Source of the DNA: Methanomicrobiales archaeon
GTDB lineage: Archaea; Halobacteriota; Methanomicrobia; Methanomicrobiales; JACTUA01
Reading direction: 5' to 3'
Length of the DNA stretch: 64,000 bases
Assembly (NCBI GenBank): GCA_029907705.1
Contig: JARYLJ010000002.1
Coordinates: 8,373-72,372 of the forward strand
This document shows, piece after piece, positions 10,126-64,000 of the stretch (positions are counted from its first letter, which is position 1; every line of letters begins with the position of its first letter). The notes beneath the pieces are model-generated. The model was not told the DNA's origin, did no database searches, and was given only the letters and a program-made list of their open reading frames with translations. The position numbers and the translations under genes are program-made.

Positions 10126-10269
10126 GCAGGGGAAGAATCCTCTATGGCCCTCGTATGGCGATCTCACGGTCAATGGCATGCAAGCCATATGGAGGGACGA
10201 TCAGGGACATTCATTCGGTTGGAAAACGTTGACCTTCTCCGTACCTCGCCATCTGCCAGGGTCCTTCAT

Positions 10270-10420
10270 CTCCTCTTCTCTCGAACACAAGTTCTTGCGA
10301 TGACTTCGAAAAAAATTCACCCGAGAATTCTGGAATCACGATCTCGCTGATGGATTGGCGACCGGGTGCAATGAGAAGATCGTAACCCGTCTGTGTTTGG
10401 CCATGACATTCTCTGAAGAT
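10270..10420 (+). repeat. intergenic repeat family, copy A (internally deleted)
   Basis: 10275-10346 aligns by eye with 63435-63504, about three quarters identical. The 'gattggc' and 'tctgaag' modules follow directly. The copy lies between convergent gene ends. Confidence 0.7.
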
Positions 10421-10458: not shown

Positions 10459-10641
10459 CTAGCAGGACGCGCCCGGCTCGATCCTGATGCTGGTCGAGAG
10501 CTTGGCGTACTTCTCCGGCTTTTCCTCGAACTTCTTCTTGCAATGAGCGGTGCAGAAGTAGAACGTCTCTCCCCTGTACTCTGCCCTGTGCACTGCCTTC
10601 TCCTCGTCCACCTCCTGGTAACATACCGGATCCATGGCCAT
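10459..10641 (-). CDS. YHS/TRASH-domain metal-binding protein (60 aa)
   Basis: Start moved to ATG 10641. MAMDPVCYQEVDEEKAVHRAEYRGETFYFCTAHCKKKFEEKPEKY is the canonical YHS pattern. The upstream part of the track ORF looks non-coding. Confidence 0.75.
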   Translation of the reverse strand: MAMDPVCYQEVDEEKAVHRAEYRGETFYFCTAHCKKKFEEKPEKYAKLSTSIRIEPGASC

Positions 10642-10922
10642 GTAAATGCACCTCCTCTCGATGATCTCTCTGTTGAACCGTGGGTTTTTAAAACTTTCCT
10701 GCCACATCGTTCTGCCGGCACAGGGGAAGGCTCTGGCACGGGCTGAAAAAAGGCCCTGTGGCATTTCTCTGTCAGCGAGAATGTGCACGGCACCTTCGGG
10801 GAGGTGAACGGTATTCCGCATCTGCGCGAAAGGCGGTGTCATGTTCGCACCATTCATATACCCGAATGCGTGGCCCTGCGCACGTAATCGGTCTGCTCCC
10901 TTGCGCCTCCCGGCGCGCCTCC

Positions 10923-12092
10923 TCACTTTGCCGTGCTCACGATCTTGATGATATCCCCTGTTCTGAGCTGGTATGTGTCCTTCACCCTCATTCTGGTTCT
11001 CGCGTCCACTGCATACAGGAACCCCTCTCCGATGTCCGAATGCACGCGATATGCCAGATCCCTCGGTGTGGAGCCCCTCCTCATCAGGAATGCATCCGGC
11101 AGCACCTTTCCGTTTCTGTCCGAGAACTTGTGTTCGTCCTCGACCGGATAGACGATCACCTGATCCAACAGATCGAGGACGGCGCGGTTGATCGCCGGCT
11201 GCACCCCTGTGCCGCCGTGCTCCTTCATCAGTGCAGAGATGCGTCCCAGTCCCGCCTTCTGTGCATCGTTCAGCGCATCTGGCTTCAGAATGTAGAAATC
11301 CGTATCACCGGGGAGGTATCGGATCAATCCGGCGGCGGCAGCGTTTCTCAGTGCGAGTTCGGCCGCCGCACTTGCCCCAATCGCTCCCTGCTGGAGAAGG
11401 CGGAGCACGAGATCTTTCGGGGCGGCATCGATCTTGTTCGCCACGACAAGCATGGGCTTCGAGAGATCCAGGAGACGGCCGGCGAAGGAGACCAGTGCAT
11501 CTCCCGAAAGCCTGTGCAGAGGCGCCTCGACCGCCCGTTCCGCCTCCTTCACATGCTCGACTCTGATGCCGAGTCCCGCGAGCGCGTCCGCCAGCCCCCT
11601 GCTCATGGAGAATCCGCTCGACTGCGCCTGCCTCTGGAGCTTCGACCAGTGCTTCTCCAGGATGCCGTGCAGCCACATTGTCATCTCCCTCCTCAGGAAA
11701 ACGATATCCCCGGCTGGATCGTGGCTCCCGACGGGAACGGGATTCCCCTCCGCATCGGTACCTCCGCTCGCGTCCACCACATGGATGATCGCATCCGCCT
11801 CGCGGAGGTGATCGAGGAACTGGTTTCCCAGACCCCTCCCCCTGTGCGCATCGGGCACGAGCCCAGCGACATCGATCATCCCGATCTGGACGAATCTGAC
11901 GCCATCCTGACAGCTCCCGCATTTTATCCCCAGCTCCCTGCAGGGGCATTGGGTTCGGACATAGGCGATGCCATGATTCGCATCTATCGTGGTGAAGGGG
12001 TAGTTCGCGATCTCCGCATGGGCCATCGTGGATGCCTTGAAAAAGGTCGATTTGCCACAATTCGGTTTTCCTGCAATTCCAAGGGATATCAT
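10923..12092 (-). CDS. ychF: YchF/OLA1-type P-loop GTPase/ATPase
   Basis: 389 aa. GKPNCGKST Walker A, NYPFTTI G2, DVAGLV G3, C-terminal TGS-like domain. Confidence 0.85.
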   Translation of the reverse strand: MISLGIAGKPNCGKSTFFKASTMAHAEIANYPFTTIDANHGIAYVRTQCPCRELGIKCGSCQDGVRFVQIGMIDVAGLVPDAHRGRGLGNQFLDHLREADAIIHVVDASGGTDAEGNPVPVGSHDPAGDIVFLRREMTMWLHGILEKHWSKLQRQAQSSGFSMSRGLADALAGLGIRVEHVKEAERAVEAPLHRLSGDALVSFAGRLLDLSKPMLVVANKIDAAPKDLVLRLLQQGAIGASAAAELALRNAAAAGLIRYLPGDTDFYILKPDALNDAQKAGLGRISALMKEHGGTGVQPAINRAVLDLLDQVIVYPVEDEHKFSDRNGKVLPDAFLMRRGSTPRDLAYRVHSDIGEGFLYAVDARTRMRVKDTYQLRTGDIIKIVSTAK

Positions 12093-13555: not shown

Positions 13556-13574
13556 AAGGGGTCATGTGGCCGTC

Positions 13575-13800
13575 CTCGAATGCGGGGATTCATGGCCTCG
13601 AAGGCCTGAAGTTGACGGCCATTTGATCTCTCCCCCTTCCGTGCGCGATTCTCCCGTTCCGGTGAATGCGATGATATTCAGAGAAACAGGGTGGGGCAGG
13701 ATGAAATTTTCGGAGTTCGTTACTTCCAGCTCGCACCCACGGAGTTGATTGGCATGGGCAAAGCTGCCAGAGTCATTCGTAGAAATTCCAGGGGTCATTC
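13575..13800. repeat. diverged repeat modules (E-type), homologous to 28085-28260
   Basis: Shares anchors with 28.1 kb at near-equal spacing: 'ggcctg', 'acggccatt', 'attcagaga..cagg'. 'cgtgcgcgattctc' matches the reverse complement of the family core 'gagaatcgcacg'. Confidence 0.5.
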
Positions 13801-13949
13801 GGGATTGTATGAACCTCCATCCCGCGTATGACAGGGGTGAGAGCCCTGGTGGTTCCGCCCCGGATGACCACTGATACCTTCGTCCAGTTCGATTCCATTG
13901 ATTCATTCAACAACCCTGAGAAGGGCCTGTTGAACTCCAGCTTCGGATA

Positions 13950-23223: not shown

Positions 23224-23289
23224 ACATGCGTCAACCCCCTTTGTTTATAAGGTAAAAAGTTCCCATCCTGAAGGTAGATCGGGGTTCTC

Positions 23290-23570
23290 CTCTCTTTTTC
23301 ATAGCAATATCGAACAAAAATGCATCCGAAAATTGTATATCCACAATATCGCTCGTGATAAAACGATCAGATCGACCGATGCCGCCGCATTCAGGCAATT
23401 CCCGATCGCCGGAGTTCATCCGGAAAAGGAAAGGGAGAATCGCACGCAGGGACGCCGGAGCAGGGGGGCGGAGGCATGCGGTGCCCCCTGGAGCGCTCGA
23501 TATCATCAAGGAGAGGTTTGTTCTTTCATGTGCCGCGATATCCGCTCAAACCGCATCCTCCTTCTGAAGT
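23290..23570 (+). repeat. intergenic repeat family, copy B
   Basis: Aligns by eye with 63449-63770 in three modules: 'atcgaa.aaaa.tgcatccga.aat', 'gagaatcgcacgcag...cccctggagcg', 'gcatcctc..tgaa'. Lies between convergent gene ends. Confidence 0.75.
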
Positions 23571-26227: not shown

Positions 26228-28030
26228 TTATGCGATGAGAAAGAAGATGATGGTTACGGCTATCGCAATAAAGACGAGGGTCATGATCCCCCCCGCCCGG
26301 AGGTAGTCACGGGTCGTGTAACCGCCCGGGCCCATCAGCAGCGCGTTGACCTGATGTGTGGGGAGGATGAAGGAGTTGGAGGCGCACACCCCGACGAGCA
26401 GTGCGAGTGCCCGGGGGTCAGTGCCCAGGCCGGCTCCCGTGAGCATGGCGAGCGGTACCAGGAGAACGGTGGCCGCGACATTGGAGATGACGAGCGTGAG
26501 GGCGGTGGTGATGATCGCAAAGGAGAAAAACACCACGAGGGGGTGAGCCCCTTCGAGTGCTCCTGCGAGTGCGACCGCCAGCAGGACCGCAGCGCCGCTC
26601 TTCTCCATGGCAATCCCGAGGGGGAGGAGACCTGCGATCAGAACAATGCTCTTCCAGTCGATCGCATGGTAGGCATCCTCGATCGTGAGGACGCCCGTGA
26701 CGATCATCCCTGCCGCCCCGGTGAGGAGTGCCAGCGAGATCGGTACACCCGCGAATGTGAGCGCGATGGATGCGGCAAAGAGGAGGATTGCAAGGTACGC
26801 CTTGCCATGACGGACGATCTCGCCCACCGGCTGTGTGACGAGGAGCAGGTCGCGATGGTTTGCCAGCAGCCTCAGGTTCTCCCATGACCCGAAGGCAACG
26901 ATCACGTCGCCTGCGGCGAGAGGAATATGCGAGAAGTCCGCGCGGGTCTCCGTCTCCCCTCTCACGTGGACGATCGGCTCCACGGAGAAGGTCTGCCTGA
27001 AGCTGATCTCCCGTGGTGTCCTGCCCACGATCGAAGCGCGTGGTCTCACCACGAGCTCGGCGAATCCATAACCTTCGCCTTCGAGTATCTCTTTGAGCCT
27101 GCTCCGATCACCCGAGGAGATGCAGCCTGTCTCTCTGATGAAACGAGCAAAATCCTCCTCGGATCCGATGAATGCCAGCTCCTGTCCTGCCTCCAGTCGT
27201 GTCCCCCGGGAAGGGGCGATGCTGATCTCGTCGAGGGACCATATGGCAAGGAGGTCGAGGCCATATCGGAACTTGAAGTATGCGTCCTCGCGGGTCTTTC
27301 CAGCCAGCGACGAGGATGGAGGCACGATGCAGGACCTGATCGGTTGATCGATTCTCCAGATCTCCGCGACGGTTGCGCCCTCCTCACCCCACCCCCCGAG
27401 GGGCAGCAGATATTCTTTCGCGAGCGCGAAGAGGAGCACGCCCGCCACGAGCAGGGGAATCCCGACCGGCGTGACGTCGAAGATGGAGAAAGGCGCCGCG
27501 TCTGCGGTCCGGAGCAGGTCGTTCAGTACGATGAGCGGGCCGGAACCGATCATCGTGATGCAGCCGCCGAGAATGGTGGCGAAGCCGATCGGCATGATGA
27601 GCCGGGAGACGGGTGTCCGAGTGCGCCGTGACAACCTCCGCATCGCGGGGAGGAAGAGAGCAGCGGCTCCGATGTTCTGAAGGACGGATGAAAGAAGGCC
27701 TGCGGTCAAGGAGGTGAATGCAACGACCCGCGTCTCCTCGTTACCCGTGTACCTGACGATCGAATTCGCGATCCAGGTCGCGATACCCGTGCGCTCTATG
27801 CCATGTCCCAGGATCATCACCGCAGCCATCGCAACGACCGCATTCGATGCAAATCCCGAGAGTGCCTCCGCCGGGGTGACGAGGCCGAGCCAGGCGAGGG
27901 CGAGAGTCGCGAGGATTGCGACCACGTCGATCCTGATCCTGTCGGAGACGAAGAGGATCAGCGTCATTGCGATGATGAGGAGGACGAGGATGATACTGAC
28001 GTCCATGCGAACTACCTGGTTATTTGGCAT
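26228..28030 (-). CDS. SLC13/DASS-family anion transporter with central TrkA-C (RCK_C) domains
   Basis: 600 aa. Hydrophobic N- and C-terminal halves flank a soluble roughly 170-aa insert with the TrkA-C pattern. Confidence 0.8.
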   Translation of the reverse strand: MPNNQVVRMDVSIILVLLIIAMTLILFVSDRIRIDVVAILATLALAWLGLVTPAEALSGFASNAVVAMAAVMILGHGIERTGIATWIANSIVRYTGNEETRVVAFTSLTAGLLSSVLQNIGAAALFLPAMRRLSRRTRTPVSRLIMPIGFATILGGCITMIGSGPLIVLNDLLRTADAAPFSIFDVTPVGIPLLVAGVLLFALAKEYLLPLGGWGEEGATVAEIWRIDQPIRSCIVPPSSSLAGKTREDAYFKFRYGLDLLAIWSLDEISIAPSRGTRLEAGQELAFIGSEEDFARFIRETGCISSGDRSRLKEILEGEGYGFAELVVRPRASIVGRTPREISFRQTFSVEPIVHVRGETETRADFSHIPLAAGDVIVAFGSWENLRLLANHRDLLLVTQPVGEIVRHGKAYLAILLFAASIALTFAGVPISLALLTGAAGMIVTGVLTIEDAYHAIDWKSIVLIAGLLPLGIAMEKSGAAVLLAVALAGALEGAHPLVVFFSFAIITTALTLVISNVAATVLLVPLAMLTGAGLGTDPRALALLVGVCASNSFILPTHQVNALLMGPGGYTTRDYLRAGGIMTLVFIAIAVTIIFFLIA

Positions 28031-30341: not shown

Positions 30342-30447
30342 TCCCGCCTCCCGGATTCGAACCGGGGACATCGCGGTAGCCGCGCAGTTACCTGAATCGG
30401 TAAACCATACTACAGCCGCGCACTCTACCAGGCTGAGTTAAGGCGGG
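30342..30447 (-). tRNA. tRNA-Tyr (GUA) with an approximately 32-nt intron after position 37
   Basis: Reverse complement: CCCGCCT-TA-ACTCAGCCTGGTAGAGT-G-CGCGG-CTGTAG[TATGG...GCGCGGCT]A-CCGCG..CCCGGTTCGAATCCGGG-AGGCGGG-A. The C1:G72 pair plus A73 is the archaeal Tyr identity set. The mature loop is CUGUAGA. Confidence 0.8.
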
Positions 30448-30876
30448 TGCTGGTGCCCTCTAATATTTGAAAAATCAATTATTAAACATATCGTTCTCTC
30501 TTCTGGAAGAAAATATTGGAGAAGGGAAAAAACATGTGCCAGAAACGGAATGGGGCTGTCCAGATGGTCTCTGGAAGAGCGATTCGGCTCTCATGAGTAC
30601 TCTCTGGCAGACGGCGGGTGGTTTCGCGTGAAGCAGGAAAACTACCCACGGTTATTTGTCATCCATTCTGTAAAAAAACGAGAATCAGAGGAGATAGCAC
30701 CCGGTGGCGATTGAACGCGGCCAGTGCACGAATGCATGATCGAAGGTACCGGGCGGGGCTCTATCGGGCGCGCAGGCGCCCATTCGCAAGACAATCCTTC
30801 GTCAGGCACAGGAAACGACAGAAGGACCCCCCGGTCGCCTCCGATCTTATCCGGGTCGGAGCATGAAATGCGGGCA

Positions 30877-30972
30877 CATCAAAGGCCCGTATAGAACATC
30901 CAGAACGGAGCTGGCAAAACGGGTACCCATCGGGAAAGGGGGCATCAAAGGCCCGTATAGAACATCCAGAAC
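30877..30972. CRISPR. orphan CRISPR-like unit: two 30-nt direct repeats and one 36-nt spacer
   Basis: CATCAAAGGCCCGTATAGAACATCCAGAAC is identical at 30877-30906 and 30943-30972. The spacer is GGAGCTGGCAAAACGGGTACCCATCGGGAAAGGGGG. No cas gene lies in the window. Confidence 0.45.
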
Positions 30973-31040
30973 CATGGCAGAGCCGTTCATTTATTTAATA
31001 CAGACGCCAATAGTAAATGGCATGACACCACAAACGACTG

Positions 31041-32558
31041 ATGTGGGGTATTTTCTTCTTCACCCCCAGTAACGCACCGAAGAAGATCGCTGTTTTCGAC
31101 ACCACTCTGAGGGATGGCGAACAGACACCCGGTATATCCTTCACACTTCAGCAGAAACAGGAGATTGCGAGGCAGCTCTCCGAGATCGGAGTCCGCACGA
31201 TAGAGGCGGGATTTCCCGCGTCCTCCGGAGCGGAGGAGGAGACCGTCAGGAGCATCGCAGAGATGGGCCTGAGCGCCGATGTCTGCGGTCTCGCCAGGAT
31301 GCTGAAGAGTGACGTGGACGTATGCATCGACTGCAATGTCAGCATGGTGCACGTTTTCATTCCGACCTCGGACGTGCAGAGGATCCATACAATCCGGAAG
31401 AGCCGGGAAGAGGTGCTTCACGCACTGGAAGAGGTGATCGCCTATACGAGAGATCACATGGAGAAGGTGATGTTCTCCGCCATGGATGCCACCCGAACCG
31501 ACTGGGATTATCTCCTCCAGGTGTACGAGGCGGCAGTCAATGCCGGCGCGACCGTGATCAACGTCCCCGATACCGTGGGGGTGATGACGCCCTCCGCCAT
31601 GCGGCAGCTCGCATCGAGAATTTCCGACAGGATCAGAGTCCCCATCGATGTGCACTGCCACAATGACTTCGGGCTGGCCGTGGCAAACACGCTCGCAGCC
31701 GTGGAAGGCGGGGCCTCGCAGGTGCAGGTCACGGTGAACGGCCTCGGGGAGAGGGCAGGGAACGCCGATCTCTCGCAGACCGTGATGTCGCTCGAGTCCA
31801 TCTACGGGATCTCGACCGGGATCACGACGCAGAAGCTGGTCGAAACATCCAGGCTCGTCTCCAGATATGCCGGTTTCACCCTGCCTCCCACGCAGCCGAT
31901 CGTCGGGGACAATGCCTTCTCACACGAGAGTGGCATCCATTCGCACGGGGTGATCGCCTGCTCGCAGACCTTCGAGCCGGGCATCATGACACCGGAGATG
32001 GTGGGTCACCGGCGGAGGATCAAGATCGGCAAGCATACGGGCAGGCATGCGGTCAGGCAGCTCCTCGCCGATGTCCATATGCATCCCACGGAGGCACAGC
32101 TGGACGAGATCGTGGAGAAGATCAAGTTCATCGCTGGGAAAGGGAAGAAATTGACGGATGCCGACCTCTACGAAATCGCTGAGAGCGTTATCGGCGGCAA
32201 CGGCGGGAAGAGGGTGTTCAAACTCCAGGATATCACCGTCATCACCGGTAACCACACGATCCCGACCGCGAGCATCAGGGCGCTCGTCGACGATAAGGAG
32301 CATATCCACAGCAGCGTCGGCAGCGGTCCTGTGGACGCCGCGATGAAGGCGATACTGGCAGTACTGCCCGCCCCCATCGTGTTGAAGGAGTTCAGAATCG
32401 AGGCGATTTCAGGCGGTTCGGATGCGATCGGGCATGTCACGATTGCGGTGGAGGATCCTTCAGGGCGTATATTCGACGCCAGCGCTGCGGGCGACGATAT
32501 CGTCCTCGCCTCCGTAGAGGCGATGCTGAGGGCGGTGAACCTGCTCCACAGAAGATGA
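31041..32558 (+). CDS. 2-isopropylmalate synthase / (R)-citramalate synthase family protein
   Basis: 505 aa. FDTTLRDGEQ, HCHND.G and a C-terminal LeuA-dimer regulatory domain. LeuA and CimA cannot be told apart by eye. Confidence 0.9.
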   Translation: MWGIFFFTPSNAPKKIAVFDTTLRDGEQTPGISFTLQQKQEIARQLSEIGVRTIEAGFPASSGAEEETVRSIAEMGLSADVCGLARMLKSDVDVCIDCNVSMVHVFIPTSDVQRIHTIRKSREEVLHALEEVIAYTRDHMEKVMFSAMDATRTDWDYLLQVYEAAVNAGATVINVPDTVGVMTPSAMRQLASRISDRIRVPIDVHCHNDFGLAVANTLAAVEGGASQVQVTVNGLGERAGNADLSQTVMSLESIYGISTGITTQKLVETSRLVSRYAGFTLPPTQPIVGDNAFSHESGIHSHGVIACSQTFEPGIMTPEMVGHRRRIKIGKHTGRHAVRQLLADVHMHPTEAQLDEIVEKIKFIAGKGKKLTDADLYEIAESVIGGNGGKRVFKLQDITVITGNHTIPTASIRALVDDKEHIHSSVGSGPVDAAMKAILAVLPAPIVLKEFRIEAISGGSDAIGHVTIAVEDPSGRIFDASAAGDDIVLASVEAMLRAVNLLHRR

Positions 32559-51338: not shown

Positions 51339-52306
51339 ACGCTCCTCCGATGCCGGTAGAACGGCACCCTGCCTCTAATATTAATGGAATCCTGCACTTA
51401 TAACGCTTGAGGAGACGATAGCGGTTATTCTGGCCGAGATTTTTCCTTCCCCGGATGGAAAAATCTGAAGGTCCGGGGAGGATGCGCGCCGCTGTATCCT
51501 TCGATTGAAACCCTATCCGGTGGACCGAAGCAGAATCTCGAACGATCACACGTATTTTCGCCTGCATTGATCACCCGATCCCCATTAAAAAAAAATCGTC
51601 GAACGTCGGTTCGAGCAGCGGGTTCACCCTTTCAGGAGAAAGACCGATGAACGCCGCTGATCGTCTGTTGGGTTCCATCTGGCCAGGGCATGCCGCATCG
51701 TTTGCCCAGCGCGATCCCGTCGATCCGACAGGATCACCGAAGCACGTTCCATCTGCAGGGCGCTCCTCGCCCTGACCCGGCATGAATTCATCGTGCGCCA
51801 TGTCGGTCCGAAAATGATCTCATCACCGGTTTCACAACAGGACGGAAGGATCGATGGATATGCTCTGGATCCGCAGTAGGAAAAATATGGGGGGCCACAG
51901 TCATAAGACCCCTGTTGCTCCATCTCCTCTGACGATGGAATTTTCTCAATAGATCCTCCATGAAGGTGTCAAAAAAAGAATGGATATCTCCGAATCTCCC
52001 GTCGGCTCAGGCCTTTCCAAATCCGCCATGCAGGCGCCACCCCATGCATGGTATAACGCATCTGCAGTGGCCATGGGGGGAAGGAGACGAAGATGAAAGA
52101 TCATTTTCGTCAGCCACTTTTCGTCAGCAACGCCTGCCACGGAGATTTTTTAAAAAATCCTGAAATATGAAAATCCATGGAGACACCCTCTGATCGTGAT
52201 ATTTCCATGGATAAGCGTTTTCCTGCTCCAAAAGAAAATTTCTGGCCTTTCTTATCGTGCCTATACGATACGTTTAAGTAAAAATCTGCCCAAAGTGATC
52301 AGAGCT

Positions 52307-52381
52307 GCTGCCATAGTGTAGACCGGTCAATCATGCAGGACTCTCACTCCTGCGACTCGGGTTCAAATCCCGATGGCAGCA
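52307..52381 (+). tRNA. tRNA-Glu (CUC)
   Basis: GCTGCCA-TA-GTGTAGACCGGTCAATCAT-G-CAGGA-CTCTCAC-TCCTG-CGAC-TCGGGTTCAAATCCCGA-TGGCAGC-A. Anticodon CTC. Confidence 0.9.
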
Positions 52382-53016
52382 TTCTGTTATACGTGGTCAA
52401 AGTCCATTTTTAACTTTTTTTTATCGATGATCCAAAAAGGCGTTCGCAGATAAGATATTCACCATATTAACGCCCGGTTGAATCATCCTCAGACCAGCGA
52501 CCGGATCGCGGGTTCTTCGGTACGGTGAAGGGAGGAGATAGGGATAAAGCACCGTGCGACCGACCCTCCAAGCCCCCGAATCGGGGCAGAATAAGTACAG
52601 TGAGAGATCATGGACGATTGAGGAGTCTCACTGCGGCGTGATGTATCGATGCGGCATCGCACGATGTCAGTGGATGGAGGAAGAGGTGCAGATCTCTTCG
52701 GAAGAACAGCTGCATGACCGGCCGGTCCGACGACCGGGACAGGAAGATCGAGTCACTCGCAGGCGGTCGAGATTCAGCATCGATGGTAAATTGTTTCATG
52801 GGAGCCGGTATGTCGCCCGGTCCGTATACCACAAATCATCTTCGGACGATCTCCACATGCTCTCTCTTCGTTTTCATTGTCCCGGGTCTGAGTTATTCCA
52901 TCATCAAAAGACTTCAGGGTACCATCATTTCGGGATCAGTAGAAAAGAATGCCATTCGAACACCCATCCTGAAAAAACCCCGAAGAAATCCGCATGCAGC
53001 TGCAGACAGTCCTGAT

Positions 53017-59372: not shown

Positions 59373-60317
59373 TCAGGCACACAGCCCCGCGATCCCCCTC
59401 ACGAGCTGCTGCGTCTCCGCCGGGGTCCCTGAGGTGTTCACGAGATATACATCGATATGCGAGAGCAGTTTGAGAAAGAAACTCTTTCGCAGCGCTTCCT
59501 TGAATGGATTTCTGATCAGAAGATGCGGATTGAAGTACGTGTGGGACTCCAGATGGTGCAACGCCTCCGATGGCTCCAGCTGACGGCAGCGGACAGGATC
59601 GCCTCGCCTCTCCAGCAGTATCATCGTCCGGAGCCGGGTGAGGGGCAGAATCCTTCCCTTCCCCACGACCCACCTGAGGTCCACGACCGCCCTCCCCTCA
59701 CCATCGAACTCCGCATGTTCTACGAGATCTTCGAATTCAGGCCAGATAGTGGCGAGATCCGCGCGGATATAGAAGTTCTTCTCGGAACCATAGGCGAGTA
59801 CATCCTTCCCGAACTCGCGGACGAAGAACCAGTCATCGGCGATGACATGCACCCGCTCGTCGCGAAGCATGCCGTAGGTATGTGTGGTCTTGCCAGCACC
59901 CGACGCCCCCACGATGCAGAGGCCTCCGCACCCGGTGTCGATACAGGCGCCATGAATAGAGAAGATGGAGTGTTCGTCCTCGAGGATGTCGCCGGCGACG
60001 CTCAGTGCGAGCGATTTTATCCAGCCATAATAGGTGATATTCAGGAGAAATGCGGTCTTCGATTGAGCATCGTACAGGACCGTATCCTTCGATTCACGGG
60101 GATCGTCCAGCACATAGAGGCGGCCATGCGATCTGATATTCTGGGACATCGCGAAGAAGTTCTCCTCCCACCGGTCCTTCACGATGCGTGCATCTGTCAG
60201 AAGCTTGATGCAGCATCCGTATATGTCCGATTTATGTTCGAATTTCACCAGGGGTGTATACCTCGACGCGATCTCCTCCTTCTCCTCGATCGTGATCGAT
60301 CTGACCGTATATACCAT
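59373..60317 (-). CDS. HprK/PEPCK-like P-loop kinase-family protein, function unknown
   Basis: 314 aa. IVGASGAGKTT Walker A followed by VIADDWFFV, as in HPr-kinase/PEP-carboxykinase-type nucleotide sites. Confidence 0.55.
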   Translation of the reverse strand: MVYTVRSITIEEKEEIASRYTPLVKFEHKSDIYGCCIKLLTDARIVKDRWEENFFAMSQNIRSHGRLYVLDDPRESKDTVLYDAQSKTAFLLNITYYGWIKSLALSVAGDILEDEHSIFSIHGACIDTGCGGLCIVGASGAGKTTHTYGMLRDERVHVIADDWFFVREFGKDVLAYGSEKNFYIRADLATIWPEFEDLVEHAEFDGEGRAVVDLRWVVGKGRILPLTRLRTMILLERRGDPVRCRQLEPSEALHHLESHTYFNPHLLIRNPFKEALRKSFFLKLLSHIDVYLVNTSGTPAETQQLVRGIAGLCA

Positions 60318-60539
60318 GCGATTCTGTTGGAGAGAAGAGGATTAAGCCTTTTTGGCCAGTAGAGAAGGAAAAGGGAAGGCAGGATCTCAGGGGAAGGAAC
60401 ATTGCCACCTCCGTGAATCGATCCCGGATGAACTCCCCATCAACCGGATAGACGGAAGGGGATACGTTCTCCTGTTGCGAGTAAAAGTACAGCGATAGTT
60501 TCGATGGTTTTTAGAACGTGTTGCACATCGATTTTCAAT

Positions 60540-60700
60540 ATGAAAATCAACTGCCTATCTGTTTTTTTGCATCGAACGCCCCAGGGGGCTCTGCATGGGC
60601 CTTCATCGTGAATCGGCCTGCGATTCTCGCGATGCAATCGCACGAATCCTGTATCGCACTTACTTTTACAATCAGAATCGTGAGAAGGATGAATCGCGTT
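60540..60700 (-). repeat. intergenic repeat family, copy D (inverted orientation)
   Basis: The reverse complement of 60570-60632 reads GAGAATCGCAGGCC...GGCCCATGCAGAGCCCCCTGGGGCGTTCGATGC and aligns with the cores at 23435-23500 and 63632-63700. 'agaatcgtgag' (60674-60684) matches the reverse complement of 'ctcacgatctc'. Confidence 0.65.
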
Positions 60701-60739: not shown

Positions 60740-61372
60740 ATGGTTCCCCTGATCCTCGATCTGAGAGGGAAGAAGGTGATTATCTTCGGAGGAGGAGCCG
60801 TGGGGGCGAGAAAGGCGCGCTTTTTCTACGGTGAGGCGATGATAAAGGTGATCAGCCGGACCTTCTCCCGCGAAATCGAGGGGATGGATCTGGAGAGGAT
60901 CTCTATCGACCTTTCTCTGGTGGACGATGAACGTCTCCGTTCTCTCGTCAGAGGTGCATCACTCGTCGTCGCAGCCACACCTGCAAGGGAGATCAATGAC
61001 CGGATCGGAAGGATTTGCCGGGAGCAGGGAATTCTCTTCAACAATGCGGACGGTGAGCCAGGCGATGCGATACTGCCTGCGGTGAGCGGGGGTCGGAATT
61101 ATCTCGTCGCGGTCACGACGTTCGGCAGGAGCCCGGCATTCGCGCGATATCTTCGAATGATCCTGGACGAACGTTCCCATGAGTTCGACATGATGATCTC
61201 ACTGCAGGAGCGCCTGAGAAGCTGGCTGAAGGCGCAGGAGCCAGATGGATTCAGGAGATCGCAGATCCTGCGTGCCGTGATCAGCGACCCGGATGTGTGG
61301 AACGACTTGCGAGAGGGTGAAGGGAAGGCGATGGACCGCGTGAAGGAGAGATACCTCGATGAATACGTCTGA
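60740..61372 (+). CDS. precorrin-2 dehydrogenase / sirohydrochlorin ferrochelatase (siroheme synthase N-terminal type)
   Basis: 210 aa. L.GKKVIIFGGGAVGARKA Rossmann start, typical of SirC/CysG-N. Confidence 0.85.
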   Translation: MVPLILDLRGKKVIIFGGGAVGARKARFFYGEAMIKVISRTFSREIEGMDLERISIDLSLVDDERLRSLVRGASLVVAATPAREINDRIGRICREQGILFNNADGEPGDAILPAVSGGRNYLVAVTTFGRSPAFARYLRMILDERSHEFDMMISLQERLRSWLKAQEPDGFRRSQILRAVISDPDVWNDLREGEGKAMDRVKERYLDEYV

Positions 61373-62672
61373 TTTCACGGTCAAGCCTGAACTGGCGTAC
61401 CATATCGAGATTGCCATCGCTTCGCTAAGCCACCACCATGCCCGCATACAGGAGATCGAATCATTTCGTTTTTCTGACGAGAAGAGTCTCCTCGAAAGAG
61501 CGAAGGGTATTTTCAAGGGTGTCTTGCTGCTCCAGACCTGTAACAGAGTAGAGGTGATCGTTCATGGGGGAATCGAGTTGCTTCAAAGCTTCCTGGAGGA
61601 AGAGGGCAGGTCAGGGCACAGGCTTCTGGAGGGGGAGGCAGCCCTCCGTCATCTCCTGGAACTCTCATCCGGTATGGACTCCATGATCGTCGGTGAGGAC
61701 CAGATCATCGGACAGATGAGGCAGGCGTTGAAACGGGCGGAAGAGGCAAAGTCAGTGGATCCGTATCTCAGAACATGTATGGAGAAGGCGATCCACGTGG
61801 GAGTCCTCGTCAGGCAGAGGACGAGGATCAATCGTGGTGCCGTATCCATCGGATCCGCTGCCGTGGAACTGGCAGAGAGACTCCTGGGCGGCCTGGAGAA
61901 ACGCCACATACTCGTGATCGGTACCGGTGAGATGGGCAGCCTCGTGGCAAAGGCACTGGCGGAGAGGGGGCTGTCCGCAATATATGTGGCGAACAGGACG
62001 TACGATCGGGCGGTCTCGCTCGCAGAGGAGATTGGAGGAAAGGCCGTCCGTCTCTCGGAGCTGTACAATTATATCAGACTATCCGACGTCGTGATCTCCT
62101 GCACCTCTGCACCGCACCCGATCATTTACAGGGAGAAGCTTCAGCCTGTAATGGAGGAGCGGAGATGGCCGCTGGAGAAGCATCCGAGGCCGCTCGTGAT
62201 CATCGATATCGCCCAGCCGAGGGATGCAGAGGAGGGGGTGCAGGAGATCGATGGTGTGCAGCTGTACACCATCGATGATCTCCGCTGCATCAGCGAGAAC
62301 AACCTGCACAGCAGGATGACGGAGATCGAGCAGGCGAGGGTCATCGTCGAGGACGAGCTTGCACACTGCAGGAGGCTGCTCGCGAGGAGTTCTGTCGAGG
62401 ACATCATCGCCTCCATTTACACATGGGCAGAGGCGATACGCGTGAGAGAGAAGGAAAGGGCGTTGCATCGTATGAGAAACTCGTCCGCTGCTCCCGAGGG
62501 GATACTGGATGACCTGACCATGGCACTCGTAAACAAGCTGCTTGCCGACGTGACCTATTCGATCAGGGAATGCGGGGAGAAGGGCGACCTGAAGGGGGCG
62601 GAGGCCATCCTTTTCGCCCTTACGAAGAGATCGAGGCCGCCAAGGGGAAGAAATTTTTTTAGAGCAGAATAA
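61359..62672 (+). CDS. hemA: glutamyl-tRNA reductase
   Basis: 437 aa. LLQTCNRVE active-site Cys motif and GTGEMG NADPH fold. Overlaps the previous gene by 14 nt. Confidence 0.95.
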   Translation: MNTSDFTVKPELAYHIEIAIASLSHHHARIQEIESFRFSDEKSLLERAKGIFKGVLLLQTCNRVEVIVHGGIELLQSFLEEEGRSGHRLLEGEAALRHLLELSSGMDSMIVGEDQIIGQMRQALKRAEEAKSVDPYLRTCMEKAIHVGVLVRQRTRINRGAVSIGSAAVELAERLLGGLEKRHILVIGTGEMGSLVAKALAERGLSAIYVANRTYDRAVSLAEEIGGKAVRLSELYNYIRLSDVVISCTSAPHPIIYREKLQPVMEERRWPLEKHPRPLVIIDIAQPRDAEEGVQEIDGVQLYTIDDLRCISENNLHSRMTEIEQARVIVEDELAHCRRLLARSSVEDIIASIYTWAEAIRVREKERALHRMRNSSAAPEGILDDLTMALVNKLLADVTYSIRECGEKGDLKGAEAILFALTKRSRPPRGRNFFRAE

Positions 62673-63284: not shown

Positions 63285-63419
63285 TATGTATTGCTGATGA
63301 TCGTTCGAATACACCCAAACACGATAGATAATGGATGGGTGCATGCCCTTCTCTATCGTTCTGCATGCTCTGATATCATGTCTTTTAGATCTTTTTATCC
63401 GAGAGGTTTCAGCGAGTCG

Positions 63420-63770
63420 CTTCTGTTCCCTGTCTTCCCGAGCACGCGTTTTCATCACGACATCGAAAAAAGTGCATCCGAGAATCGGGGACTCACGATC
63501 TCGTCCGTTTAACAGCCAGATCGAACGTTGTATCCACATGCATGTATTTTCAGGATGACAACCATACCGCACCACTTTCACCCTCTCCGTCCATGCGTGG
63601 GATCGCTGGAGGTTCGATCCGGGACAGGTCAGAGAATCGCACGCAGAGGCGCCGGCGCGGCGGGGGCGATGCCGTGCAGAGTCCCCTGGAGCGTTCATCG
63701 ATTGGCCGAGGGTCTAAAAATTATCCTTTTACCATCCAGAGTCAATTTTTTGCATCCTCTGAAAAACCAA
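63420..63770 (+). repeat. intergenic repeat family, copy C (longest)
   Basis: Contains all three modules seen in copies A, B and D, plus an extra roughly 70-nt insert (63530-63600). Further module fragments ('attctggccg') continue to the window end. Confidence 0.75.
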
Positions 63771-64000
63771 TCAATCGATATTGCATTTTTACTTGCATAA
63801 TGAGAAGACCCATTCTCCCGTCGTCATGATTCATCAGAGCATTTCTTTCTGAATCGATTCAGGTAAGGGTTCAATCGCGTTTTTACCGATGAACCGATCT
63901 CCTCGTGTTCTCCTCCGATCAGAAATGACATCCATCCTTCCGATTCTGGCCGGGAAGGCTCGTCGTGTGAGGTGAAACCGTCTGTCCATGAACGATTGGA

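Follow-up and report, generated by a model that had tools for sequence, protein, structure and literature searches.

A 64-kb stretch of DNA from a Methanomicrobiales archaeon, hereafter referred to as the window, harbours a family of related, strictly extragenic sequences that recur at four loci (copies A, B, C and D), each of them assembled from separable modules in its own combination. An initial annotation had proposed a modular intergenic repeat with at least four copies; the family is real, its coordinates were right, and four loci were found, with no fifth copy being detected in the window by nhmmer profiles. On the evidence presented here, there is about an even chance that the family represents a lineage-specific, non-coding dispersed mosaic repeat that was inserted into intergenic gaps and is comparable to the BIME, ERIC or BOX elements of bacteria. 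No description of such a repeat family was found in the literature searched.

A codon-usage gene map divided the window into ~66 genes and 31 intergenic regions amounting to 10.2 kb, and in an all-versus-all blastn comparison of these regions only pairs of family members and one tRNA pair were significant. Positions 63601-63696 of C match 23404-23498 of B with 77.6% identity over 98 nucleotides (nt; E 1e-13), 63449-63549 of C match 23296-23400 of B with 66.7% identity (E 3e-7), and 63429-63503 of C match 10272-10346 of A with 72% identity (E 5e-8). Copy D, for which a reverse-complement match to module 2 had been claimed, is marginal by blastn (E 0.003-0.03) and is confirmed by other means. 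The pattern GAGAATCGCA-N20-50-CCCTGGNGCG matches exactly B, C and, on the minus strand, D in the window, with no match in 100 shuffles; furthermore, the exact 13-mer GGAGTTCATCCGG is found in B and D only and nowhere else in the window. When local alignment scores were compared with those from 300 dinucleotide-preserving shuffles, z-scores of 25 (B-C), 14 (A-C), 6.4 (A-B), 6.2 (reverse-complemented D with C) and 6.1 (reverse-complemented D with B) were obtained; for each pair, none of the 300 shuffles reached the observed score, while pairings in the wrong orientation scored as background. It is this similarity far above shuffles, together with its uniqueness among the intergenic regions, which establishes the family at four loci, and the shuffled background against which the initial annotation had set its own claim is thereby rejected (z 6-25).

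That the similarity merely reflects chance or composition in a GATC-rich genome, or else decayed coding remnants, is barely credible. With 787 occurrences in the window, GATC is indeed over-represented 3.3-fold relative to the base-composition expectation, although its frequency is about as expected from trinucleotide counts, and words containing GATC or CGAT are, thus, poor evidence of homology in this genome. Several of the strings originally listed as shared are common words of this kind, and 'cacgatctcg' (6 exact copies) and 'cagatcga' (15 exact copies) had to be given up as family signatures. However, scores that the shuffles never attained, and family pairs that alone stand out among the intergenic regions, already refute the chance reading. 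Against coding remnants speak six-frame translations, in which no open reading frame (ORF) is conserved between the copies and indels shift the frames, and the substitutions between A and C, which are distributed over the codon positions as 11:5:5, with no codon-position (including third-position) bias. Hidden small protein genes were rejected on the same grounds of a missing conserved frame and missing codon-position bias. A cysteine/selenocysteine pair, considered for a minus-strand TGC in C versus TGA in A, was likewise rejected, as B is frameshifted and the ORF composition is nonsense-like.

The inserted nature of the copies is suggested by their absence from relatives, which were read in three tiers, namely the contigs L044-L046, the contig L047, and the contigs L013 and L040-L043. 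The closest relative, SRR16893473 (Logan contigs L044-L046), has 83-88% coding-DNA identity to the window. At its B site on L046, where the flanking genes are 83-85% identical at the nucleotide level, the gap between the Hsp20-like and YeeE/YedE genes measures 85 nt versus 467 nt in the window, and no family sequence is contained in it. Family sequence is also missing from L047 (75-78% identity), in which the A locus is rearranged, and from L013 and L040-L043 (hemA 62-70% identity). The latter contigs keep the order of hemA and the gene of 17x amino acids (aa). Downstream of their counterpart of the 179-aa gene, the next gene follows at a distance of 4-92 nt or overlaps it, as opposed to at least 540 nt in the window, and these contigs have no copy at the C or D loci. 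Long orthologous gaps (e.g., 13556-13949) can no longer be aligned with the relative of 84-88% identity, whereas B and C are still 78% alike over 98 nt; hence, the copies are either younger than the split or have been held together by selection or gene conversion. Exact scans for the core of block 2b returned 12 matches in 185,579 species genomes, 20 in the JGI metagenomes and 6 in IMG/VR; these are chance matches, with no wider similarity at the genome or metagenome hits, the viral ones not having been re-checked. The module-1 core had no viral match in IMG/VR, and blastn found no match in plasmid and phage collections.

In terms of mechanism, the copies would have been placed in gene-free gaps of an otherwise ordinary core-gene region and would subsequently have diverged through substitutions and block deletions or insertions, with the spread probably having occurred within the lineage, once it had separated from its nearest sequenced relatives. 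Given that neither terminal inverted repeats nor target duplications were found, classical cut-and-paste would fit less well than recombination or single-strand (HUH-type) transposition. At the shared boundaries in the four gaps there are no terminal inverted repeats, the only candidates being arms of 12-17 nt at 76-85% whose positions differ by copy, and no copy-specific target-site duplications were found to flank the copies. A direct motif, GCATSCTCTGA, flanks C, and a similar one is present in B; as it is common to several copies, it is part of the element or chance, and no target duplication. Beside the left ends, no common 4-5-nt target is seen (GTCC, GGGG, TCTG). The effect on the cell would be incidental and local, with intergenic or untranslated regions being lengthened; the copies may bring in archaeal transcription signals, such as TTTTAC/TATA-like boxes and, on the minus strand, a run of T5-7 that follows the module-1 hairpin at a distance of 7 nt, and the repeated word GAATCG could serve as a candidate protein-binding site.

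These same boundary features make it very improbable that the family is a classical MITE (miniature inverted-repeat transposable element), that is, a deletion derivative of a DDE-type insertion sequence (IS) which is moved in trans and carries terminal inverted repeats and target duplications. While the small size of the copies, their non-coding and intergenic nature, their variation between relatives and their differing lengths through internal deletions would suit such an element, the best inverted pairs differ in place from copy to copy, the flanking motif is shared between copies, whole-module identity among the copies is only 52-71% with no near-identical pair, and no transposase is found among the window genes scanned. 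Of the MITE-like, non-autonomous element suggested initially, the inserted and non-autonomous part has thus gained support from the relatives that lack the copies, whereas the inverted repeats and target duplications did not materialize.

Several observations weigh against a dispersed repeat. Among the ~50 of the ~66 window genes that were scanned with Pfam, no transposase or integrase was found, and the functions seen are of the housekeeping type. Base-by-base alignment of the B site with the gap on L046 fails, so that an insertion in the window and a deletion in the relative are indistinguishable there, and the copy count amounts to four in a single 64-kb window. The predicted hairpins are weak (-3 to -9 kcal/mol) and mostly no better than those of shuffles, and a scanner for bacterial-type terminators makes no call at the module-1 hairpin regions of A, B and C. 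Furthermore, blocks such as GAGAATCGCA and CCCCTGGRGCG persist in each of the three module-2 copies despite a variable middle; such conservation hints at selection, which a purely selfish repeat would not need.

The four copies can be dissected into separable units, namely module 1, the 2a hairpin, the GC-rich block 2b, whose middle is replaceable, and a tail that carries a TATA-like TTTTAC box (Table 1). B and C are complete, A combines module 1 with the tail, and D consists of 2b, the tail and a permuted 2a.

Table 1. Parts of the four repeat copies, in order of position in the window, with the evidence for each.
Feature	Positions	Strand	Evidence
A, module 1	10269-10367	+	nhmmer E 4e-28; blastn to C 72%, E 5e-8
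A, module-3-like ACATTCTCTGAA	10406-10417	+	mismatch search, 2 mismatches to C motif; weak
B, module 1	23286-23390	+	nhmmer E 7e-26
B, module 2	23400-23511	+	blastn and pattern match
B, module-3 motif GCATCCTccttCTGAA, then TATA-like TTGTATATT	23553-23568	+	by-eye match only
D, stretch downstream of 2b, common with C	60414-60561	-	pairwise alignment; ~190 nt shared including TTTTAC box
D, module 2b only (core 60577-60628)	60562-60661	-	pattern match; nhmmer E 2e-21 (D in model); shuffle z 6.1-6.2
C, module 1	63425-63539	+	nhmmer E 8e-34; blastn to A and B
C, specific 58-nt insert at the junction of modules 1 and 2	63540-63597		MAFFT alignments; no B counterpart
C, module 2	63598-63703	+	blastn to B 77.6%, E 1e-13; pattern match; nhmmer
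C, 'module 3' motif GCATCCTCTGAA	63752-63763	+	repeat search; not significant alone
C, stretch after module 3, common with D (reverse complement)	63764-63862	+	193-nt pairwise alignment, E 2e-5

Module 1 follows a common plan of a CU-rich start, a short T-run, a run of five to seven A residues (corresponding to a T-run on the minus strand) and a weak hairpin, H1. In C, these are a CU-rich start, TTTTC, an A6 run (63466-63471), H1 (CGAGAaTCG-N8-CGATCTCG, 63479-63503, a weak hairpin of predicted -9.4 kcal/mol) and CAGATCGA; in A, an A7 run (10309-10315) is followed by H1 with a U.G pair (10322-10346); and in B, the A-run is interrupted (AACAAAAA) and H1 (23327-23351) has the inner stem ATTGT/ACAAT. 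At one position of the H1 stem, C has a C-G pair, A a U.G pair and B a U-A pair. Copy A passes from H1 straight into GATTGGC (10353-10359), which in C comes after module 2, so that modules 2a and 2b look as if they had been removed by clean deletion.

Module 2 is composed of the small hairpin 2a and the block 2b, the latter with 65-67% G+C in gaps of ~50% G+C. The 2a hairpin reads CTGGA-GGTTCGA-TCCGG in C (63606-63622) and CCGGA-GTTCA-TCCGG in B (23409-23423; -8.2 kcal/mol, z -2.6), with a U.G pair in C being replaced by C-G in B. Block 2b extends over 63632-63697 in C (67% G+C; conserved ends GAGAATCGCA ... TGCAGAGTCCCCTGGAGCGTTC) and over 23435-23498 in B; all three copies B, C and D share its ends GAGAATCGCA and TGCRGNGYCCCCTGGRGCGYTC, while the middle differs and, in D, is swapped for another hairpin, GAATCG-caggc-CGATTC. 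The stretch downstream of 2b in D holds CTAAAAACCA, CTTTTACT (60480-60487) and ATCGATTCA, and the 13-mer of B's 2a (GGAGTTCATCCGG) is located at 60424-60436, 150 nt after 2b and not before it, hence the permuted order of parts in this copy. The corresponding stretch of C contains CTGAAAAACCA, a TATA-like TTTTTAC (63786-63792), GAGAA and the palindrome CTGAATCGATTCAG (63849-63862).

Of the three modules proposed initially, modules 1 and 2 were borne out, while module 3 proved degenerate and not significant alone. Within two mismatches, its motif occurs at 11 places in the window, three of them inside the gaps of the family and eight elsewhere; in C, a direct repeat of it with 13 of 15 positions matching, TTCTGCATGCTCTGA, is found at 63359-63373, to the left of the element. 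The word 'gattggc', said to close copies A, B and C, was found in A and C only. The claim that the copies differ by internal deletions and insertions is supported by the alignments, namely by the 58-nt insert of C and the deletion-like junction of A.

A more tentative explanation, improbable but worth considering, is that the copies are paralogous small non-coding RNA genes, or RNA elements borne by untranslated regions, each with its own TATA-like box, whose conserved blocks and CU-rich ends function through base-pairing or by binding protein and whose dispersal is secondary. It would account for module 2 as an island of high G+C content, for the fact that B, C and D keep the ends of 2b while the central hairpin between them is replaceable, and for the two sets of alternative pairs in H1 (C-G/U.G/U-A) and 2a (U.G/C-G); two G.U pairs, H1 in A and 2a in C, favour the plus strand, in two observations only. 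In the plus orientation, TATA-like boxes, read by eye, precede the start of homology by 25-35 nt in B (23244), C (63393) and reverse-complemented D, in the last ahead of 2b, and a T6 run follows module 2 in C. Yet the folds are no better than shuffles on either strand (module 2, z -1.65 to +0.72; whole C, +0.16 and -1.24 on the two strands; not significant), and the consensus folds that RNAalifold yields are as good on one strand as on the other, covariation being almost absent, with a single compensatory pair in module 1 among three module-1 sequences. TATA-like boxes and T-runs occur for both orientations, with a T5-7 run 7 nt after H1 on the minus strand in all three module-1 copies; A has no TATA-like box, the T5 run of B lies ~25 nt past the predicted start, and the corresponding sites of relatives have no copy. 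The one terminator call in the B gap, 23378-23364 (-), is downstream of H1 and at chance level for the region. The earlier suggestion of structured small-RNA genes is not upheld by fold energies and is only weakly backed by covariation, with both strands folding equally well.

Searches against Rfam, which had been named as a way of recognizing a catalogued small-RNA family, returned no match at the family loci, neither with the whole window at gathering score or E<=10 nor with the C and B gaps alone at E<=10. Together with the absence of regularly spaced near-identical repeats as in a CRISPR array (the copies are 52-71% alike and 3-37 kb apart) and of a transposase in the genes scanned, this agrees with the exclusion of a tRNA, rRNA, CRISPR array or IS made at the outset. 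A tRNA-derived element was considered because of the T-arm-like loop of 2a, GGTTCGATCC, and was rejected, the loop being one base short and differing in B and D; neither a tRNA model nor ARAGORN responds at the 2a hairpin. C/D or H/ACA guide RNAs, a cobalamin-type switch upstream of hemA and origin-recognition boxes were rejected as well, no boxes being visible by eye.

It is quite unlikely that the family constitutes shared cis-regulatory DNA, i.e., arrays of GAATCG sites for one DNA-binding protein which lie beside TTTTAC-type promoters and control the neighbouring genes. GAATCG/CGATTC is the most enriched word, with 12 occurrences in the four gaps versus 29 in the other 62 kb (p 3e-10); six are in the D gap, five in the C gap, one in the B gap and none in the A gap, compared with 0.64 per kb in the whole window. 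Inverted pairs are present as GAATCG-N5-CGATTC in D and GAATCGATTC in C, the 2b of D is flanked by divergent TTTTAC boxes at 60480-60487 (-) and 60664 (+), and C and D have ~190 nt including a TTTTAC box in common. On the other hand, A and B are situated between convergent gene ends with nothing obvious to regulate, the spacing and orientation of the words are irregular, and similarity over ~100 nt with indels goes far beyond the length of a binding site. TTTTAC is found six times in the four gaps and six times elsewhere, ten of the 12 occurrences being intergenic; its designation as a TATA-like box is inferred from the A/T boxes upstream of the tRNA and protein genes of the window, which further weakens the regulatory reading. 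An iteron-like array of a ~16-nt unit (GCATCC..GAGAATCG) was rejected, with GAATCG as the only robustly enriched word. Both a small-RNA family and a regulatory array would possibly be compatible with an origin as a repeat.

Among known systems, the bacterial mosaic intergenic repeats comprise BIME/REP of E. coli, ERIC/IRU of enterobacteria, BOX of Streptococcus pneumoniae and Correia/NEMIS of Neisseria. Like these, the archaeal family is short, non-coding and exclusively intergenic, often at gene ends, with separable modules, indels, small hairpins, occasional promoter- or terminator-like signals and a presence that varies among related genomes. Of the traits characteristic of BIME, ERIC and BOX, extragenic non-coding copies, separable modules and presence or absence at orthologous sites are found, and the H1 and 2a hairpins are present but weak. 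Unlike them, it resides in an archaeal host, is not known to share sequence with them and has weak hairpins instead of strong palindromes. In contrast to REP systems, no RAYT-type or other transposase is linked to it among the window genes scanned, and the inverted ends and TA duplication of Correia elements are absent.

Small size, a non-autonomous nature, intergenic location and variation between strains are also known from archaeal MITEs such as the SM-type elements of Sulfolobus; these, however, end in inverted repeats that match a resident IS and are flanked by target duplications, two features that were not found in the present family. The intergenic small RNAs of Methanosarcina mazei are similar in being multi-copy, intergenic and 100-350 nt long, with conserved blocks and A/T-rich flanks, but differ from the family described here in that the latter has no significant fold and no conserved promoter/terminator arrangement, and relatives lack the copies at the corresponding sites. 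With IS200/IS605-derived palindrome-associated transposable elements (PATEs) and REP/RAYT it has in common the lack of terminal inverted repeats and target duplications and the sub-terminal hairpins; unlike these, there is no common 4-5-nt target, the two end hairpins are dissimilar, and no TnpA, TnpB or RAYT gene was found among the ~50 window genes scanned.

A bolder interpretation, which we regard as unlikely, is that of an undescribed kind of archaeal mobile non-coding element that lacks inverted ends and target duplications but has its own promoter-like box, and whose 2b block and CU-rich ends act as a regulatory small RNA, or whose GAATCG words act as a binding array, thereby wiring stress, sulfur and tetrapyrrole neighbours into a lineage-specific circuit.

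If the family is a dispersed repeat, its interest lies in the fact that intergenic repeats of the dispersed type, while well documented in bacteria, have hardly been described from methanogenic archaea. With presence/absence differences between close relatives, it would be a marker of recent genome change in an uncultured Methanomicrobiales lineage and a candidate from which new promoters, stops or small RNAs could arise. A modest gain for annotation would be that four long "empty" gaps are accounted for by repeat insertions rather than by overlooked genes or conserved RNAs.

Concerning the setting of the copies, the window contains the eL15-Euryarchaeota leader and archaeal tRNAs (Rfam) as well as methanogen genes, including those for 4-HFC-P synthase and FmdE (Pfam scans). 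The four loci correspond to about one per 16 kb, and both the gene map and ORF checks bear out that all copies lie outside convincing ORFs. In agreement with the initial annotation, A and B are placed between convergent gene ends and C after a gene end. Copy A lies between an MFS transporter gene and a YHS-domain gene. Between the window and L047, the small YHS-domain gene (10459-10926 in the window, 11306-11521 in L047) is inverted relative to its MFS and YchF neighbours, and a 17-nt inverted pair (10202-10218 / 10862-10878, 82% complementary) brackets the YHS segment in the window; the 155-aa YHS ORF of the window is probably too long, the protein of the relative having 60 aa.

Copy B is located between an Hsp20-like gene (NCBI name) and a YeeE/YedE sulfur-transporter gene. 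A second presence/absence difference near this copy concerns a 600-aa CitMHS/TrkA-C transporter gene of the window (26228-28030), of which only a 111-nt remnant is seen in the relative with 83-85% identity (L046 3574-3974).

Copy C follows a conserved 164/179-aa gene and may face a minus-strand gene whose open frame leaves the end of the window. This open frame (63824-64000, -) has 58 codons, with its stop at 63824, and runs past the window end; no similarity to the genes of relatives at that position was found. If it is a gene end, C would also be situated between convergent genes.

Copy D occupies the gap between divergent genes, those for a P-loop protein (NCBI "aldolase") and the precorrin-2 dehydrogenase-hemA operon. 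Directly after its 2a-like hairpin, a strong ribosome-binding-like GGAGGTG precedes a 58-aa ORF (60232-60408, -). In a different frame, this ORF overlaps the annotated start of the 314-aa 'aldolase' (HPr-kinase-like P-loop) gene, whose true start may therefore be in question. For hemA (61359-62672), a homologue search gave a best match of 70% and did not return its own product, whereas a YchF search returned its own protein; probably, the hemA annotation of the source genome differs in its start or is absent.

Other intergenic regions of the window contain features of a different kind. Upstream of the 2-isopropylmalate synthase gene (31041-32558), a gene-free stretch of 934 nt contains a 35-nt direct repeat, GGGSRCATCAAAGGCCCGTATAGAACATCCAGAAC (30872-30906 / 30938-30972), whose two units are 94% identical and 66 nt apart; no Rfam match was obtained for it, and the surrounding region, 30500-31040, is GC-rich and unannotated. 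The 1.2-kb gene-free region 51802-53016 has a tRNA-Glu (52306-52382) as its sole identified feature. At 51437-51466, in the gap 51339-51570 beside a GTPase gene, a 30-nt palindrome centred on GAGATTTTTCC...GGAAAAATCT (87% complementary) may be a two-way terminator. Finally, a tRNA adjoining tRNA-Asp at 30342-30447 (-) was picked up in Rfam with the E-value threshold only (50.8 bits over 106 nt); as ARAGORN assigns it an odd anticodon of four bases, it probably represents an intron-containing archaeal tRNA.

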